IMG/VR virus record: IMGVR_UViG_2681813316_000016 | Location: 1 to 13,071 of that record | Source: a virus | Taxonomy: Duplodnaviria; Heunggongvirae; Uroviricota; Caudoviricetes | Length of the DNA stretch: 13,071 nucleotides | Reading direction: 5' to 3' (one strand) | Shown: piece by piece, positions 1,721 through 10,623 of the stretch | Numbering within the stretch: the first letter of the stretch is position 1 | How the letters are laid out: every line of letters starts with the position of its first letter | The notes under the pieces: model-generated | What the model was told of the DNA's origin: nothing | What the model saw: only the letters and a program-made list of their open reading frames with translations | The model's database searches: none | Program-made: the position numbers and the translations under genes

Positions 1721-2137
1721 ATGAATAAAAACGACCTTGAAGCATTATCTGACACTAGGCTTAATGAGGCCAAATGCTTGCTTGATCATGGCTTTTTTCA
1801 TGGTGCATATTATCTTTGTGGGTATGCAGTTGAATGTGCATTGAAGGCCTGTATTGCCAAGTCATTTTTACAACATGAGTTTCCAAACAAAAAAGTCGTA
1901 AATGATTCATATACTCATGATTTGTCGCAACTTCTCAAAATTGCCAACTTACATCAAATTTTGATTGCTGACGCAAAAAATGATGTTTCGTTGGAGATTA
2001 ACTGGTCGGTCGTTAAAGACTGGAGCGAGCAATTTAGATACGACAATAACATAAGTAAAGCTATGGCCGAACAATTGTTTGATGCTGTAGGTGACCAAAA
2101 TTCTGGAGTTTTGAAATGGGTAAAAGCACACTGGTAA
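1721..2137 (+). CDS. HEPN-like domain protein (138 aa), first gene of an AT-rich two-gene cargo cassette
   Basis: Track ORF; core GAYYLCGYAVECALKACIAK...SYTHDLSQLLKIANL resembles the HEPN helical signature (A-x-E-x-ALKA ... H-x-L-x-x-L); no canonical R-x(4-6)-H seen; visibly AT-rich; no obvious Shine-Dalgarno at ATG 1721. Confidence 0.55.
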   Translation: MNKNDLEALSDTRLNEAKCLLDHGFFHGAYYLCGYAVECALKACIAKSFLQHEFPNKKVVNDSYTHDLSQLLKIANLHQILIADAKNDVSLEINWSVVKDWSEQFRYDNNISKAMAEQLFDAVGDQNSGVLKWVKAHW

Positions 2138-2517
2138 TCGGCAGAGAGTTGACAAAAGATATGGAATTCTCAGGTCAATTTTTGTTAAAAAAACTCAAGT
2201 TACAGAATTTAACTATTGATGCTGCAATGTGGTTTTATTACCCAGATCTATCTTGGAGATATATTTTAGTTATCAGTGACTTCTCAGAACGTGGGCCGGC
2301 AGAAATATATAGAAAAATCAGTGAGATAAATAGAAATAGCATATCAAAAAAGTATAAGCCGATACCATTAGAAGCAATTGAGGCTAAGGGGGATTCAGCT
2401 TTTGTTTATAAAATGTTAAAAGGATTTGCTAGAGTCAACGATGGTAAAGTTCGCGTTTCTAATTCTATGGTAAATGGTTTAGAAATCGTTGACTGTCTGA
2501 TCTATGAGTTAAAATAA
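2116..2517 (+). CDS. Uncharacterized protein (133 aa; 118 aa if started at ATG 2161), partner of the HEPN-like gene
   Basis: Track ORF; start 2116 overlaps upstream gene by 22 nt, with GGAG about 8 nt upstream; no recognisable nucleotidyltransferase GS..DxD motif; AT-rich; no family recognised. Confidence 0.5.
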   Translation: MGKSTLVIGRELTKDMEFSGQFLLKKLKLQNLTIDAAMWFYYPDLSWRYILVISDFSERGPAEIYRKISEINRNSISKKYKPIPLEAIEAKGDSAFVYKMLKGFARVNDGKVRVSNSMVNGLEIVDCLIYELK

Positions 2518-6472: not shown

Positions 6473-6688
6473 ATGAAATCCATGGATAAGTTAACAACGG
6501 GTGTCGCCTATGGCACCTCAGCAGGTAGTGCCGGGTACTGGTTTTTACAGCTGCTCGATAAAGTCACGCCCTCACAGTGGGCAGCAATAGGTGTGCTGGG
6601 TAGCCTGGTATTTGGCCTGCTGACGTACCTGACAAACCTTTATTTCAAGATTAAAGAAGATAAGCGCAAGGCTGCGAGAGGTGAATAA
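6473..6688 (+). CDS. essD: Class II holin / pinholin, phage 21 S-like (71 aa), with dual-start motif MKSM
   Basis: Track ORF; [26 protein letters not shown]...[19 protein letters not shown] closely resembles S21 as recalled; two transmembrane segments; ATGs at 6473 and 6482. Confidence 0.9.
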
Positions 6689-7185
6689 TGCCTCCATCAT
6701 TACGAAAAGCTGTTGCTGCTGCTATTGGTGGCGGGGCTATTGCTATAGCATCTGTGTTAATCACTGGCCCAAGTGGTAACGATGGTCTGGAAGGTGTGAG
6801 ACATAATCCTTACAAAGACATAGTTGGTGTATGGACTGTATGTTACGGGCATACAGGAAAAGACATCATTCCCGGTAAAACGTATACCGAAGCAGAGTGC
6901 AAAGCCCTCCTGAATAAAGACCTTGCCACTGTCGCCAGACAAATTAACCGGTACATCAAAGTCGATATACCGGAAACAACGCGCGGCGCTCTTTACTCGT
7001 TCGTCTACAACGTGGGTGCTGGCAATTTCAGAACATCGACGCTTCTTCGCAAAATAAACCAGGGTGATATTAAAGGCGCATGTGATCAGCTACGGCGCTG
7101 GACATACGCTGGCGGTAATCAATGGAAAGGACTGATGACTCGCCGTGAGATTGAGCGTGAAGTCTGTTTGTGGGGGAAACAATGA
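6688..7185 (+). CDS. rrrD: SAR endolysin (phage 21 R-like lysozyme, 165 aa)
   Basis: Track ORF; N-terminal Gly/Ala-rich signal-anchor-release segment [20 protein letters not shown]; start overlaps holin stop (TAATG). Confidence 0.9.
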
Positions 7186-7640
7186 GCAGAGTAACCGCGA
7201 TTATCTCCGCTCTGGTTATCTGCATCATCGTCTGCCTGTCATTGGCTGTTAATCATTACCGTGATAACGCAATCGCCTACAAAGAGCAGCGCGATAACAA
7301 GGCCAGTGAACTAGAGAAGGCGAACGCCACCATCGCTGACATGCGGAAGCGTCAACGTGATGTAGCAGAACTCGACGCAAGATACACAAAGGAGCTTGCT
7401 GATGCTAACGCGACTATCGAAAGTCTCCGTGCTGATGTTTCTGCTGGGCGTAAGCGCCTGCAAGTCGCCGCCACCTGTGCAAAGTCAACGACCGGAGCCA
7501 GCGGCATGGGCGATGGAGAAAGCCCAGGACTTACAGCAGATGCTGAACTCAATTATTACCGTCTCCGAAGTGGAATCGACAAGATAACCGCGCAGGTTAA
7601 CTACCTGCAGGAATACATCAGGACGCAATGCCTGAAATAA
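7182..7640 (+). CDS. rzpD: Rz i-spanin (inner-membrane spanin subunit)
   Basis: ATG 7182 within track ORF 7170..7640, overlapping endolysin stop; N-terminal transmembrane segment then coiled-coil-like charged region. Confidence 0.85.
7396..7587 (+). CDS. rzoD: Rz1 o-spanin lipoprotein, embedded in the +1 frame of Rz
   Basis: Track ORF fully inside Rz; lipobox-like VSAC with Cys22; Pro-rich mature part ([12 protein letters not shown]). Confidence 0.8.
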
Positions 7641-7809: not shown

Positions 7810-8334
7810 GTGAGACAGGCTCACTTTCTAAAAGGTAAAGACGCTATGAACCAATTAGAAGAAAAGCTTCAAAGAATGATTTCCTTATACAAGGAAGATA
7901 ACTGCCAAAAAGTTCCTGAAAACATCGCAGAGTTAATGGAATTGGCAAGTGAATTTTCTGGCATGCTTAAGTCGTCAGGTGTTCGGTCAGCGTTCTTTGT
8001 TGAAATGCTGATGCACGGCGGACTTATGACAACAATGAGACGTGTAATGGAAGACCAGAGAAAAGAACCTCCTCAGGTATACGTTTTGTCATCGAAGAAA
8101 ACTGGGCTAACCAAAATTGGGTATTCATCCAACATTCCACAACGCATCAAATCGCTTGGCAACTCTGGACCAGACTGCTTGAAGCTTGAGTGCCTGATCC
8201 CTGGTGGAAGAGAAACTGAAAACATGCTTCATCGCAAATTTGCCGCAAAGAGAAAGCACGGTGAATGGTTCGCCCTGTCCAAGGATGACATTGAGGGATT
8301 GAAATCTGTAGCGATTACTTCTGATGGCTATTAA
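7810..8334 (+). CDS. T5orf172 / GIY-YIG-like domain protein; cargo gene where lambda carries bor
   Basis: Track ORF (GTG 7810; ATG 7846 would give MNQLEEK...). C-terminal half VYVLSSKKTGLTKIGYSSNIPQRIKSL...ETENMLH...GEWF fits the T5orf172 pattern; N-terminal ~80 aa unrecognised. Confidence 0.6.
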   Translation: MRQAHFLKGKDAMNQLEEKLQRMISLYKEDNCQKVPENIAELMELASEFSGMLKSSGVRSAFFVEMLMHGGLMTTMRRVMEDQRKEPPQVYVLSSKKTGLTKIGYSSNIPQRIKSLGNSGPDCLKLECLIPGGRETENMLHRKFAAKRKHGEWFALSKDDIEGLKSVAITSDGY

Positions 8335-8648
8335 TGCTTGTTTAGAGCAATTTTCATAACAACTCTTCATTACAAAGCCCATCTACTGGTGGGCTTGATA
8401 ATGAAACCGTGATTTACATCCCCACAATCCGGGTATGTAAAAGATAGTTCAGGCGAGAACGGATTTAACTAAATCTGTGCGTCACCAGTTAACGGCAGTA
8501 CCACGAAACAACCCAAGCCAGTAAGTGGGGAAATAACACCGGCAGCCACTGAAAGATGAACCTCCTGCCTTATGGCAAAAAAGATTCTTTGTGGTGGCGG
8601 ACTGATGGAAAGACATCCTAATTTCAGCCAAACATTGAAGGAGTTGTT

Positions 8649-8720
8649 ATGTCAGCAGAAGGTTTCAATAACCCATCAAAATTCCGGGATGAGTGGGATA
8701 GCAGCGTAAAGAGTAAGTGA
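8649..8720 (+). CDS. Hypothetical 23-aa peptide with strong Shine-Dalgarno (GAAGGAG)
   Basis: GAAGGAG 5 nt upstream of ATG 8649; MSAEGFNNPSKFRDEWDSSVKSK; sits in a ~680-bp gap without long ORFs. Sequence only. Confidence 0.2.
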   Translation: MSAEGFNNPSKFRDEWDSSVKSK

Positions 8721-9012
8721 TGCCATCACAAAAGCCATTCCCTACAGAGTGGCTTTGATAATGGCTTATACCCTACACGGGATAACTTAACTGATATCCC
8801 TTTTAAAGGATAAAGGTATTCAAGCCTGACACATCATGCGCTGTATCGTCGCCGTATTCCCGTATTAACAGAGACCGTAGCCCGACGGGGAACTCCTTCT
8901 GCGCGAGTGTGCGGGAATAATCAAAAACGATGCACACTGGGGTTACCGGGTACACATATTTCATCATGCCAGCGAGTCCGGTTCTGGCACGGAAGAAACC
9001 GGACGTTATGAT

Positions 9013-9423
9013 TTAGTGCGGAAATATTTGTGTAGTGTTCTGAATGTTCTCAGTAAAGAGTAATGAATTATCAAAGGTATAGTAATACCTTTTGTTTTCG
9101 TGGATATTTGTAATCCATCTGAAAACCCCTGCTGTAGCAAGATTTTTCCTGTATTCGTAAAATGATAACTCTCCTGATTTGAATCCTTTTAATGTGGCTT
9201 CTATAAGGCATTTATTTTTTGAAAATCTTACATTTACAACCTTACCCTGTCCTTTTATTAAAACCGTATTATCGTTTTCAAGAACAAGATGAATATTCTC
9301 TGTGGCTAAATAGTAAATGTAATGTGAGACATTGTGACGTTTTAGTTCAGAATAAAACCAGTGATAGTTTAAATTATTTCGCACTTTATCGAATATTTGT
9401 TTAAAAATGGCAACCTGAGCCAT
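9013..9423 (-). CDS. ybcV: YbcV-like protein (DUF1398 family, 136 aa)
   Basis: Track ORF 9013..9438; ATG at 9423 ([13 protein letters not shown]...) has AAGG about 7 nt upstream; AT-rich; resembles DLP12 YbcV as recalled. Confidence 0.6.
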
Positions 9424-9427
9424 TGTA

Positions 9428-9453
9428 GTACCTTCCATGTGATATGAAGGTAC
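9428..9453 (-). promoter_or_regulatory. Inverted repeat (GTACCTTC / GAAGGTAC, 8-bp arms, 10-nt loop) enclosing the ybcV Shine-Dalgarno
   Basis: Read directly; in the minus-strand mRNA the 3' arm contains GAAGG just upstream of ATG 9423, so it could be an operator or a translation-sequestering hairpin. Confidence 0.4.
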
Positions 9454-9480
9454 CTAGTCTGCACGATTATCTAAATTGCT

Positions 9481-9714
9481 TCAATCTGGTCTGACCTGCT
9501 TTCTGAGCAATTCAGTAATGTCACTCTTTTCTTTGTTTGCTTCAGGCGAAACTCTTTTTTCTGAGCACAGTCTTCGGCGGCAGGCTTCAATGACCCAGGC
9601 TGAGAAATTCCCGGACCCTTTTTGATCAAGAGCGATGTTAATTTGTTCAATCATTTGGTTAGGAAAGCGGATGTTGCGGGTTGTTGTTCTGCGGGTTCTG
9701 TTCTTCGTTGACAT
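9481..9714 (-). CDS. ylcI: YlcI-like small protein (DUF3950), probable ribbon-helix-helix DNA-binding fold
   Basis: Track ORF; RNIRFPNQMIEQINIALDQKGSGNFSAWVIEACRRRL resembles the Arc/Mnt strand-helix-loop-helix layout; directly upstream of ybcV on the same strand. Confidence 0.55.
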   Translation of the reverse strand: MSTKNRTRRTTTRNIRFPNQMIEQINIALDQKGSGNFSAWVIEACRRRLCSEKRVSPEANKEKSDITELLRKQVRPD

Positions 9715-9779
9715 GAGGTTGTCCCGTATTCAGTGTCGCTGATTTGTATTGTCTGAAGTTGTTTTTACGTTAAGTTGAT

Positions 9780-10100
9780 GCAGATCAATTAATATGATAC
9801 CTGCGTCATAATTGATTATTTGACGTGGTTTGATGGCGTAGATGCACGTTGTGACATGCAGATGATAATTATTATCATTTTGCGGGTCCTTTCCGGCGAT
9901 CCGACAGGTTACGGGGCGGCGACCTCGCGGGTTTTCGCTATTTATGAAAATTTTCCGGTTTAAGGCGTTTCCGTTCTTCTTCGTCGTAACTTGATGTTTT
10001 TATTTAAAATACCCTCTGAAAAGAAAGGAAACGACAGGTGCTGAAAACGAGCTTTTGGGCCTCTGTCGTTTCCTTTCTCTGTTTTAGGCCGTGGAATGAA
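9780..10100 (+). other. Lambda-type cos region (cosQ, cosN, cosB); 12-nt cohesive end GGGCGGCGACCT at 9914..9925
   Basis: ...gatccgacaggttacg / gggcggcgacctcgcgggttttcgctatttatgaaaattttccgg matches the junction of lambda right and left genome ends as recalled; immediately upstream of Nu1. Confidence 0.9.
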
Positions 10101-10102
10101 CA

Positions 10103-10623
10103 ATGGAAGTCAACAAAAAGCAGCTGGCTGACATTTTCGGTGCGAGTATCCGTACCATTCAGAACTGGCAGGAACAGGGAATGCCCGTTCTGCGAGGCGG
10201 TGGCAAGGGTAATGAGGTGCTTTATGACTCTGCCGCCGTTATAAGATGGTATGCCGAAAGGGATGCTGAAATTGAGAACGAAAAGCTGCGCCGGGAAGTT
10301 GAAGAACTGCGGCAGGCCAGCGAGACAGATCTCCAGCCAGGGACTATTGAGTACGAACGCCATCGACTTACGCGTGCGCAGGCCGACGCACAGGAGCTGA
10401 AAAATGCCAGAGACTCCGCTGAAGTGGTGGAAACCGCATTCTGTACTTTCGTGCTGTCGCCGGATCGCAGGTGAAATTGCCAGTACTCTCGACGGGATCC
10501 CCCTGTCGGTGCAGCGGCGTTTTCCGGAACTGGAAAACCGACATGTTGATTTCCTGAAACGGGATATCATCAAAGCCATGAACAAAGCAGCCGCGCTGGA
10601 TGAACTGATACCGGGGTTGCTGA

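Follow-up and report, generated by a model that had tools for sequence, protein, structure and literature searches.

The Qin prophage of E. coli carries next to nohA a pair of small genes, ynfO and ydfO, and homologous genes, ylcI and ybcV, are found at the same cos-adjacent position in phage lambda and in the prophage DLP12. A structure has been determined for YdfO by NMR (2HH8), and it had been claimed for the locus described here that neither family has an assigned function, with which the literature searched agrees, as none was found there. What is published concerns mostly expression. Under certain conditions, transcripts of ydfO, ybcV and ylcI have been reported for K-12 and BL21(DE3), in MG1655 RNA-seq identified ybcW-ylcI as a convergent excludon (PMC12288877), ionic-liquid shock raises the ydfO transcript about 100-fold (PMC4077768), and ybcV and ybcW go up more than 1000-fold when H-NS is perturbed by MotB of phage T4 (PMC7827196). 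The lambda orthologue of ybcV, lambdap78, is dispensable for lytic growth as determined by CRISPRi (PMC10695390). Its neighbour ybcW (lambdap79) activates the Vulcan NADase defence, and lambda phages that escape this defence delete ybcW by recombination with Qin (bioRxiv 10.64898/2026.09.04.749371). A published protection from oxidative stress by YdfO overexpression was rejected, as it traces to a paper on yfdO and is a mix-up of names.

The pair described here is one of these already catalogued, uncharacterised ynfO–ydfO / ylcI–ybcV pairs by the cos site of lambda-like phages, and its arrangement is that of ynfO–ydfO in the Qin prophage. The explanation that we favour, with a probability of roughly 55%, is that the locus is a Qin-type accessory block of two separable parts, a backbone regulator gene ylcI and a cargo cassette with ybcV. 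Such a block would lie leftward between the lysis cassette and cos of lambda-like phages, and its conserved backbone would consist of the right genome end, a leader of 199 bp, the core of ylcI, and the small open reading frame orf54.

Gene identities and cassette boundaries

In the window, by which the whole analysed stretch of 13,071 nucleotides is meant, both ORFs could be confirmed on the minus strand, one of 77 aa at 9481-9714 and one of 141 aa at 9013-9438. The first-pass annotation had described a ylcI-like ORF followed by an AT-rich ybcV-like ORF at a distance of 42 nt, and this is indeed how far the ATG at 9438 is from the stop codon of ylcI. That ATG has no Shine-Dalgarno sequence and is an alternative to the RefSeq start at 9423, from which ybcV (9013-9423, minus strand) encodes 136 aa and begins 57 nt behind the ylcI stop codon; both ORFs are in the same frame, with a TGA and a TAG between them. 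The annotation of phage ev099 and of RefSeq prophages shows the same layout with 57 nt, and of 5426 complete E. coli genomes, 2184 contain the junction, at 2305 places in total.

The gene identities that had been proposed hold as well. YlcI belongs to DUF3950 (Pfam 5e-21; PF13132 with 74.6 bits at a cut-off of 25) and to NCBIfam NF041551 (35.7 bits, cut-off 30), near-identical proteins bear the name YlcI/YnfO in RefSeq, and the protein is 100% identical to the YlcI/YnfO annotated in RefSeq for ETEC1720. YbcV belongs to DUF1398, the family with the YdfO fold (Pfam 3e-43; PF07166 with 147 bits, cut-off 22), and phmmer aligned its residues 1-135 with the sequence of 2HH8 at 2.9e-67. An AlphaFold2 model of YbcV from an alignment of 25 sequences was rejected (pLDDT 48); with a TM-score of only 0.26 to 2HH8, the structure of a real homologue, it must be wrong, and the other Foldseek hits obtained with it were discarded. 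All five ybcV alleles compared have exactly 136 codons, dN/dS is 0.18-0.35 in diverged pairs of ybcV (dS ≥0.38) and about 0.12-0.28 in the ylcI core, and judged from these comparisons both are real genes under purifying selection.

In agreement with the earlier description, the pair adjoins cos. The 12-nt cohesive end of cosN (GGGCGGCGACCT) can be read from the sequence at 9914-9925, the mature right genome end is at 9913, which corresponds to lambda 48502 in blastn, and the leader from this end, the cosQ side, to the ylcI start codon covers the 199 bp at 9715-9913 on the minus strand. A search upstream of ylcI gave no minus-strand sigma-70 promoter that matches the consensus at 9 or more of 12 positions. 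The leader contains inverted repeats at 9784-9816 and 9862-9878, which cannot be singled out since the leader is conserved throughout in the copies compared, and no Rfam family was matched within 8300-10200.

Within YlcI, residues 1-54 form a conserved core and residues 55-77 an allele-specific tail. YnfO-type proteins of the Qin type are 97-100% identical to the window YlcI and share the 77-aa form with its tail, and gene families, order, strand and tight junction are the same as well. YdfO is 76-78% identical to the YbcV of the window, the ybcV allele in the window being a distinct type that is about 24% diverged. In lambda and DLP12 the core of YlcI is homologous (94-96% aa identity), and so is ybcV (76%), but there the two genes are about 690 bp apart, and ybcW lies between them in the opposite orientation. 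The blastn alignment of window and lambda consists of two blocks, 9913-9552 with 48502-48141 and 9501-9000 with 47531-47029, and between them a Qin-type segment of 50 nt (9502-9551, minus strand), which encodes YlcI residues of about 55-71, replaces the 609 bp of lambda that bear ybcW. The lambda YlcI differs in its tail and has 64 aa; its ORF (48109-48303, complement) is missing from the annotation of J02459/NC_001416. The window already has an arrangement without ybcW, and this is the genotype that lambda phages acquire by recombination with Qin when they escape the Vulcan NADase defence.

A low-GC cassette of about 600 bp (8956-9551, minus strand) comprises the YlcI tail, ybcV, and two hairpins. 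Its boundaries follow from blastn comparisons with BP-4795, JL05 and 705R7, in which only 9714 to about 9552 and about 8955 to 8836 align and the 600 bp between them do not. The GC content is 0.29-0.35 both for ybcV, as compared to 0.43-0.55 around it, and inside the cassette, as compared to 0.43-0.5 in its flanks. Downstream of ybcV, orf54 (8803-8967, minus strand, 54 aa), which was recognised by tblastn and blastn across loci, is found also behind ylcI in phages without ybcV; it has no family match in Pfam, PHROG, NCBIfam or PADLOC. The cassette is thus present or absent between homologous flanks and deviates in base composition, as is characteristic of morons, and on this sequence evidence ybcV behaves as an optional inserted cargo on a moron-like insertion/deletion cassette between the ylcI core and orf54. 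No consensus promoter of its own was found in the cassette, and a stem-loop with an 8-bp stem that follows the ybcV stop codon and precedes orf54 (8976-9004, minus strand) is not an obvious terminator, as it lacks a U-tract. In the favoured explanation, YbcV would be a non-essential cytoplasmic DUF1398 protein with the YdfO fold, encoded on an AT-rich moron-like cassette that was inserted downstream of the ylcI core, and ybcV, having no evident promoter of its own here, would probably be transcribed by read-through from ylcI.

The hairpin at the ybcV start

It had been noticed that an inverted repeat at 9428-9453 covers the Shine-Dalgarno sequence of the ATG at 9423, and the perfect 8-bp arms with GAAGG inside could be verified. 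On the minus strand the arms (9428-9435 and 9446-9453) form a perfect stem of 8 bp, with an additional G·U pair and a loop of 10 nt, and the 3' arm GAAGGTAC holds the GAAGG, 7 nt before the ATG. For the hairpin alone, folding predicts -11 to -12.6 kcal/mol and a probability of 0.12 that the Shine-Dalgarno sequence is unpaired, and the common alleles are with about -3 kcal/mol some 8 kcal/mol weaker and have the Shine-Dalgarno sequence open with a probability of about 0.4. In the window allele, such a stable hairpin would be expected to damp the translation of ybcV.

Could the hairpin have been selected to control the translation of ybcV, for example by coupling it to ribosomes or to temperature? 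The stable stem lies exactly over the Shine-Dalgarno sequence, an 8-bp arm on that position occurred in only 3.1% of 1000 dinucleotide shuffles, a C-rich, anti-Shine-Dalgarno-like tract upstream is kept in all alleles, and the existence of alleles with 5/8, 7/8 and 8/8 pairs may represent a compensatory series. On the other hand, the exact 60-mer with the hairpin occurs in no more than 133 (13%) of the 1023 records from E. coli with this junction type, and the perfect arm in 2 of about 73 IMG/VR loci that encode the same YbcV with 99-100% identity (about 3%). The alleles of Qin, lambda, DLP12 and Tritos have no perfect stem. The 5' arm is a C-tract in most relatives and lies in a stretch that varies in length and sequence; in Qin there is a C-tract where the window has GGTACCTTC, and it is this exchange that generates the window hairpin. 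Perfect 8-bp inverted repeats are moreover common in the AT-rich ybcV region, with four observed in 1.1 kb versus 1.3±1.5 expected. Selection for translational control is thus unlikely, and according to the alleles compared the hairpin is a minority allele and not a conserved regulatory element. As to its origin, the hairpin may have arisen from a quasi-palindrome by template switching, although the intermediate 7/8 allele and a first base that is not templated speak against one single event of this kind. What counts against the favoured explanation is that stem pairs were gained stepwise (5/8, 7/8, 8/8), which may be due to selection of the hairpin in the lineage of the window.

YlcI as a putative DNA-binding protein next to cos

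The suggestion that YlcI is a ribbon-helix-helix (RHH) protein appears plausible, as there is a motif of K-N-IRFP, a helix, GSGNFS, and a second helix, together with weak but recurrent profile matches. The family alignment shows a conserved strand-helix-GxxxS-helix motif, a HicB-like PHROG is matched by 8 of 17 family members, with 8e-5 as the best E-value, and PHROGs of Arc-like repressors by up to 4 of 17 (7e-4 to 3e-2). In hhalign, the IRFP and helix A of YlcI are in register with the FNLRWP of Arc, at an E-value of 0.024 and a probability of 2%, and a single-sequence AlphaFold2 model of low confidence (pLDDT 54) has helices at residues 19-32 and 38-49 behind an extended N-terminus. Like Arc and Mnt of P22 and the RHH domains of the HicB type, YlcI is small and has a basic N-terminal arm, and its (N/G)-IRFP strand, aligned with that of Arc, is followed by a helix, a G-x-x-x-S turn, and a helix. 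It differs from these proteins in that no HMMER, Pfam or PDB match is significant: Pfam searches at E≤10 with all 17 members gave only DUF3950 and Terminase_2 and no RHH family, a PDB profile search with the family alignment gave no RHH match, and a Foldseek search of the PDB with the low-confidence model gave nothing meaningful. YlcI may thus be regarded as a putative RHH DNA-binding protein, probably a dimeric one of the Arc/HicB-like type. In the favoured explanation it would most likely be a transcription regulator that is made antisense to the late operon, i.e. while the late genes are silent, and its target would be either its own leftward unit or elsewhere.

The position of ylcI could also point to a DNA-binding factor associated with cos or packaging that has ybcV as an unrelated neighbour. 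Such a factor would bind near the right end and either shield or mark cos or silence the packaging genes in the prophage. Whether the terminase is of the Nu1/A or of the HNH-TerS-TerL type, ylcI always lies immediately upstream of the packaging module and is antisense to it. A leader of 199 bp separates its start from the mature right end, and this leader is near-invariant when lambda, ETEC1720, L185, the Nu1 of which is only 31% identical, and a decayed copy are aligned. Tritos has lost ylcI together with a swap of the packaging module. Furthermore, satellites that hijack packaging, cf-PICIs and PICIs, carry members of the YlcI family, and two of these proteins from satellites have the DNA-binding domain of a small terminase subunit as fusion partner, with Terminase_2 above its cut-off and a match to SF6 G1P (2CMP) at an E-value of 1.6e-4. 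However, two DNA-binding domains may be fused without acting in one pathway, and some homologues have no packaging genes nearby (one at a chromosomal TonB/CopC locus, one in an ICE). Cosmids that carry only cos are packaged, and in lambda genetics the terminase is the only phage-encoded factor known to be required at cos. A role as cos or packaging factor is hence quite unlikely. In the PICI satellites, the YlcI relatives are antisense, beside the integrase and divergent from the replication/packaging operon, which is a repressor-like position. A broader idea would be that YlcI/DUF3950 proteins are an unrecognised class of cos-acting RHH regulators in lambdoid phages and PICI/cf-PICI satellites, for which ybcV is a mere cargo. 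Such proteins would in all cases be encoded beside the packaging module, on the strand opposite to the main lytic or packaging operon, and they would silence or shield the packaging region during dormancy or take part in the contest of phages and satellites for packaging; this idea must be regarded as improbable, too.

Association of the two genes and comparison with known systems

As the small RHH-like protein is encoded ahead of a protein of the DUF1398 family, it had been suggested that the two genes resemble an autoregulated toxin-antitoxin or defence pair. YlcI would then be an RHH antitoxin or autorepressor with a C-terminal tail that neutralises the effector YbcV, in a toxin-antitoxin, abortive-infection or other defence system. 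The upstream gene is in fact small and RHH-like, its product is similar to HicB antitoxins in their DNA-binding domain, spacing is tight and orientation is shared, and the AT-rich block is in a cargo position. In nearly all sampled Nu1-type loci ylcI is found upstream of ybcV, and the 77-aa tail travels with the tight junction, with about 2170 full-length matches of ylcI versus about 2175 junction matches. The latter two aspects count to some extent against separable parts in general, as the near-universal ylcI upstream of ybcV in Nu1-type phages and the coupling of the tail to the tight junction fit a functional pair as well.

The genes are nevertheless often found apart. According to tblastn, 155 phage records have a YlcI homologue and 43 a YbcV homologue, so that at least 112 of the 155 have YlcI without YbcV. 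Also BP-4795, 705R7, Stx phages and the strain JL05 have ylcI alone, and the same is true for many E. coli prophages. In the E. coli genomes, ylcI DNA was found at 8365 places versus 3411 for ybcV. Tritos, an isolated phage, and L213 show the reverse, with ybcV but no ylcI in the stretches analysed, which cover the syntenic position; for Tritos this is true of either end of the record. The arrangement is tight in the window and in Qin-type loci; in the lambda and DLP12 types the genes are separated by ybcW and the YlcI tail is a different, shorter one, and in the Tritos type ylcI is absent. There is also no co-variation, as identical YlcI proteins are encoded beside YbcV alleles that are 24% apart. 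DUF1398 was never found beside distant YlcI homologues. No toxin family was matched, and PADLOC-DB v2, which covers known and candidate defence proteins, gave no match for YlcI or orf54 and for YbcV only a chance-level match to Csx23 (E 0.023, 12.7 bits). Knock-down of lambdap78 had no effect on plating (PMC10695390).

Apparent fusions of the two proteins are artefacts of gene calling: in the family P0134 (761 members) the gene call reads through the in-frame TGA. The family P0130 has the same read-through join (…RPDWSNLD…), the check at the DNA level being made for P0134. Distant DUF1398 contexts were also sought, but the scan of genome contigs was discarded since it returned mostly lambda DNA contamination, in the form of contigs of about 3.5 kb, which probably are the lambda control amplicon of nanopore sequencing, and of spike-ins of about 48 kb; scans of viral contigs returned only near-identical loci. 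On the comparative data, the proposal of a toxin-antitoxin or defence pair is unsupported and very improbable, and it is not expected that toxicity tests would be worth the effort.

The finding adds little by itself, as two catalogued y-genes of E. coli prophages have been re-discovered. Its value lies rather in the distinction of ybcV/ydfO as a mobile moron cassette from ylcI as conserved cos-proximal backbone, by which the two genes merit separate study, and in the YlcI family, which ties the unannotated right-end ORF of lambda to satellites and to the DNA-binding domains of terminases and offers a cheap and testable lead in a phage genome that has been studied as thoroughly as that of lambda.

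When the block is compared to known systems, type II toxin-antitoxin operons with RHH antitoxins, such as RelBE, ParDE and HicAB, are alike in that a small RHH-like gene precedes a larger one, the spacer being short in the allele of the window. The window pair differs from them by the lack of obligate co-occurrence, of a known toxin fold or family, and of co-variation, and by the separation of the homologous genes in lambda and DLP12. Phage morons such as bor and lom of lambda, which are cargo genes expressed from the prophage, are a further parallel for ybcV. Common features are a presence/absence polymorphism between conserved flanks, low GC content, an orientation opposite to the late operon, dispensability for lytic growth, and silence unless H-NS is perturbed; ybcV differs from them in having no recognisable promoter of its own, no U-tract terminator, and no known host phenotype.

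The two leftward genes before cos

The window represents the late region of an E. coli phage or prophage that resembles lambda and DLP12; here the Q antiterminator is followed by a minus-strand porin gene, holin (6473-6688), lysozyme (6688-7185), Rz (7170-7640), a plus-strand T5orf172-domain ORF (7810-8334), three minus-strand ORFs and the cos cohesive end (GGGCGGCGACCT, 9914-9925), beyond which lie Nu1/nohD and the large terminase. Both ORFs under study are as the first-pass annotation had described them: ylcI (9481-9714, minus strand, 77 aa) matches NCBIfam YlcI_YnfO_N and Pfam DUF3950 (5e-21), and ybcV (9013-9438, minus strand) matches Pfam DUF1398 (3e-43) and encodes 141 aa, or 136 aa if translation begins at the ATG at 9423. 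The latter start, chosen also by RefSeq, has GAAGG 7 nt upstream, the alternative ATG at 9438 has no Shine-Dalgarno (SD), and exactly 136 codons are found in 5/5 ybcV alleles compared. Both genes are under purifying selection: dN/dS is about 0.12-0.28 in the core of ylcI and, among diverged pairs, 0.18-0.35 in ybcV.

Further ORFs of the window deserve mention. The ORF at 7810-8334 lies between Rz and the leftward genes; it encodes T5orf172/MUG113 domains, which belong to a GIY-YIG-like nuclease family, and weakly matches the PADLOC candidate PDC-S57 (8e-6). In related prophages its place is taken by KilA-N or Rha-type genes. In the nin region, a 133-aa ORF (2116-2517, plus strand) that matched no family shares 22 nt with a HEPN-domain ORF (1721-2137, plus strand, Pfam 3e-6); together they may form a toxin–antitoxin or defence pair of HEPN type.

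The YlcI family is small: at 50% identity, 1.84 billion proteins contain 112 clusters of it, many of which are error-laden lambda reads. Its conserved core follows a basic arm and consists of K-(N/G)-IRFP-x2-L(I/L)ExI, a variable stretch and NFSAWV(I/L)(E/D)AC-x2-KL, which is a strand-helix-turn-helix pattern as in ribbon-helix-helix (RHH) proteins. By hhalign the core is in register with FNLRWP… of Arc (E 0.024, low probability), 8/17 members match the HicB-like phrog_497 (best 8e-5), and up to 4/17 match three different Arc-like repressor PHROGs. Pfam and PDB sequence and profile searches gave no RHH match, and Foldseek with a low-confidence AF2 model of YlcI found nothing. Judged by its sequence, YlcI is likely an RHH protein, as had been proposed, with the motif and the PHROG matches in favour and the Pfam, PDB and Foldseek results against.

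A probable backbone gene and cargo cassette

In 5426 complete E. coli genomes, DNA matches to ylcI occur in 8365 places, to ybcV in 3411 and to the tight junction of both in 2305, and tblastn of 50,697 phage records found YlcI in 155 and YbcV in 43. Without ybcV, ylcI is present in Stx phages such as BP-4795 and in 705R7, where it lies antisense to the late operon between Rz and HNH-terS-terL, and in strain JL05, where it is followed by a remnant of orf54 (the 54-aa minus-strand ORF at 8803-8967 after ybcV) and iss/bor. In phage Tritos and locus L213, ybcW-ybcV adjoin a different terminase, and YlcI is absent at both Tritos record ends and elsewhere in the fetched stretches of both (tblastn E≤10, family HMM). 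The window aligns with BP-4795, JL05 and 705R7 only in the ylcI core (9714 to about 9552) and in orf54 (about 8955-8836), and the roughly 600 bp in between, with a GC of 0.29-0.35, are an insertion/deletion cassette that contains the YlcI tail, both stem-loops and ybcV. Distant YlcI homologues are found near integrases, in an ICE, at a chromosomal TonB/CopC locus and in PICI-like satellites, and in none of these contexts is there a DUF1398 gene beside them. An obligate two-component system is thus not what the comparative results describe. The separate occurrence, the cassette and the distant contexts together suggest that ylcI is a conserved backbone gene and ybcV an optional, moron-like cargo cassette, an architecture to which we assign a probability of about 0.55.

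Most likely, YlcI would be a small transcription regulator of RHH type that belongs to the cos-proximal backbone, with its gene read in antisense to the late operon; the regulator role is our inference. In MG1655 RNA-seq, ybcW-ylcI form a convergent excludon (PMC12288877), so ylcI is transcribed. The ybcV gene would be a dispensable, H-NS-silenced moron. T4 MotB, which perturbs H-NS silencing, raises ybcV and ybcW more than 1000-fold (PMC7827196), acute ionic-liquid stress raises the ydfO transcript about 100-fold (PMC4077768), and lambdap78 is non-essential by CRISPRi (PMC10695390). In the window arrangement ybcV would be read through from ylcI, and in the window allele its translation would be damped by a hairpin over the SD.

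This hairpin, already seen in the first-pass annotation, is present as a perfect inverted repeat (9428-9435/9446-9453), has a folding energy of about -11 kcal/mol and keeps the SD mostly paired (unpaired probability 0.12). The 5' arm reads GCCCC(C)TC (5/8 complementary) in ev099, ETEC1720 and loci of the Qin type, in about 73 IMG/VR loci with the same YbcV (99-100% identical) it varies in sequence and length, being perfect in 2 and 7/8 in 5, and the stem is absent from the lambda, DLP12 and Tritos alleles. The exact 60-mer occurs in 133 of the 1023 complete E. coli genome records having this junction type, common alleles have a weaker fold of about -3 kcal/mol in which the SD is open with a probability of about 0.4, and shuffled sequence yields an arm over the SD in 3.1%. 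From the allele survey, fold energies and shuffles it follows that the hairpin is real and probably lowers ybcV translation in the window allele; as a control element it is not conserved. A selected translational element, for which the perfect stem speaks and against which the variable arm speaks, is unlikely, and would be compatible with the backbone and cargo architecture.

YlcI, cos and phage satellites

The 199-bp leader (9715-9913) from the right genome end to the ylcI ATG is near-invariant even where Nu1 is only 31% identical, and no minus-strand sigma-70 consensus promoter was seen in it. Its best sigma-70-like match (9851-9878, plus strand, GTGACA-16-TATCAT, 10/12) points rightward to cos/nu1, on the strand opposite ylcI, and overlaps the 17-bp palindrome ATGATAATAATTATCAT. 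Two satellite YlcI members (protein clusters P0330 and P0305) are fused to the N-terminal DNA-binding domain of small terminase (Terminase_2 above the gathering score; SF6 G1P 2CMP at E 1.6e-4), and in the PICI-like elements that carry them their genes adjoin the integrase and diverge from the primase/TerS/capsid operon. In cf-PICI vB_KppS-Ant and Pasteurella Pmp7, YlcI-like ORFs are antisense within the main operon, and the PICI/cf-PICI ORFs of the family (fetched loci L093 5590-6363, L094-L098, L226 7364-7537 and L223 4778-5032) are antisense or divergent to it, next to the integrase. In two of these records a long opposite-strand ORF is annotated in place of the YlcI-family ORF. In E. coli CP027459 (L093 6641-9534), the satellite integrase abuts a 61-aa truncated Terminase_2 fragment that belongs to the prophage next to it. 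This fragment lies immediately downstream of the prophage's HNH gene and own ylcI, and the satellite may have inserted into the terS region of the prophage.

A role of YlcI at cos or in packaging, with no connection to ybcV, is improbable, though it would fit the leader and the terminase fusions. This putative tie of YlcI to cos, small terminase and satellites is the sole lead worth pursuing.

YbcV and the known relatives of the pair

A toxin–antitoxin or defence pair, as proposed at first reading from an RHH-like protein ahead of a DUF1398 effector, is very improbable, since the genes occur apart, an identical YlcI (RefSeq-annotated YlcI/YnfO of strain ETEC1720) adjoins a YbcV allele 76% identical to the window's, and no defence or toxin family matches YbcV credibly. 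What had been observed is confirmed overall, and its interpretation is supported only in part. The literature searched assigns no function to either family, in agreement with the earlier statement. By inspection YbcV has no signal peptide and no hydrophobic segment, and its AF2 model is wrong (TM 0.26 to the homologue structure 2HH8).

Several statements in databases and in the literature are misleading. The DUF1398 labels 'head protein', which spread from PHROG 413 to RefSeq phage records such as NC_001416 lambdap78, and 'putative envelope protein' have no support in sequence features or in the literature searched. Oxidative-stress resistance by YdfO overexpression (PMC4077768 citing PMC3105296) is a name mix-up, as the cited paper concerns yfdO (CPS-53) and does not contain ydfO. 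The DUF3950+DUF1398 'fusion' P0134 (233 aa, 761 member sequences) seemed to tie the two genes together but is a gene call through the in-frame TGA between ylcI and ybcV, as checked in the DNA (L007 1274-1975), and P0130 (177 aa), judged from its protein sequence, has the same read-through join. Lambda right-end DNA in assemblies labelled Kitasatospora, Flavobacterium, Pedobacter, Cohnella, Bradyrhizobium and others (L191-L219) is contamination. It occurs at the ends of ~48-kb contigs or as contigs of ~3.5 kb, which are probably the nanopore lambda control amplicon. It makes both families seem to have a wider range of hosts, and many error-laden protein clusters share this source.

Both genes are already known and annotated, and functionally uncharacterised. 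Phage ev099 carries the window's own YbcV allele, annotated, the K-12 Qin prophage has the same arrangement as ynfO–ydfO, with a YdfO (NMR structure 2HH8) 78% identical to the window YbcV, and phage lambda and DLP12 have the same genes. Window 9913-9552 is 94% identical to lambda 48502-48141 (lambda 48502 being window 9913) and window 9501-9000 is 83% identical to lambda 47531-47029, whereas in between 50 window-specific nt (9502-9551, YlcI residues ~55-71) replace 609 bp of lambda (47532-48140) with ybcW (lambdap79) on the other strand, which the window lacks. At its 3' end, the gene for the 77-aa YlcI (final codons QVRPD-stop) shows homology to the leader of lambda ybcV. The lambda ylcI ORF (complement 48139-48303, full ORF to 48109; lambda locus L001 2772-2936) has 64 aa, is 94-96% identical to the window core and is not annotated in J02459 or NC_001416, and its homologues in other genomes are named YlcI/YnfO. 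According to a 2026 preprint (bioRxiv 10.64898/2026.09.04.749371), the Vulcan NADase defence is activated by lambdap79, and lambda phages that escape it have deleted ybcW by recombination with Qin. As such a recombination yields exactly the ybcW-less junction of the window, the window already has the 'escaper' arrangement.
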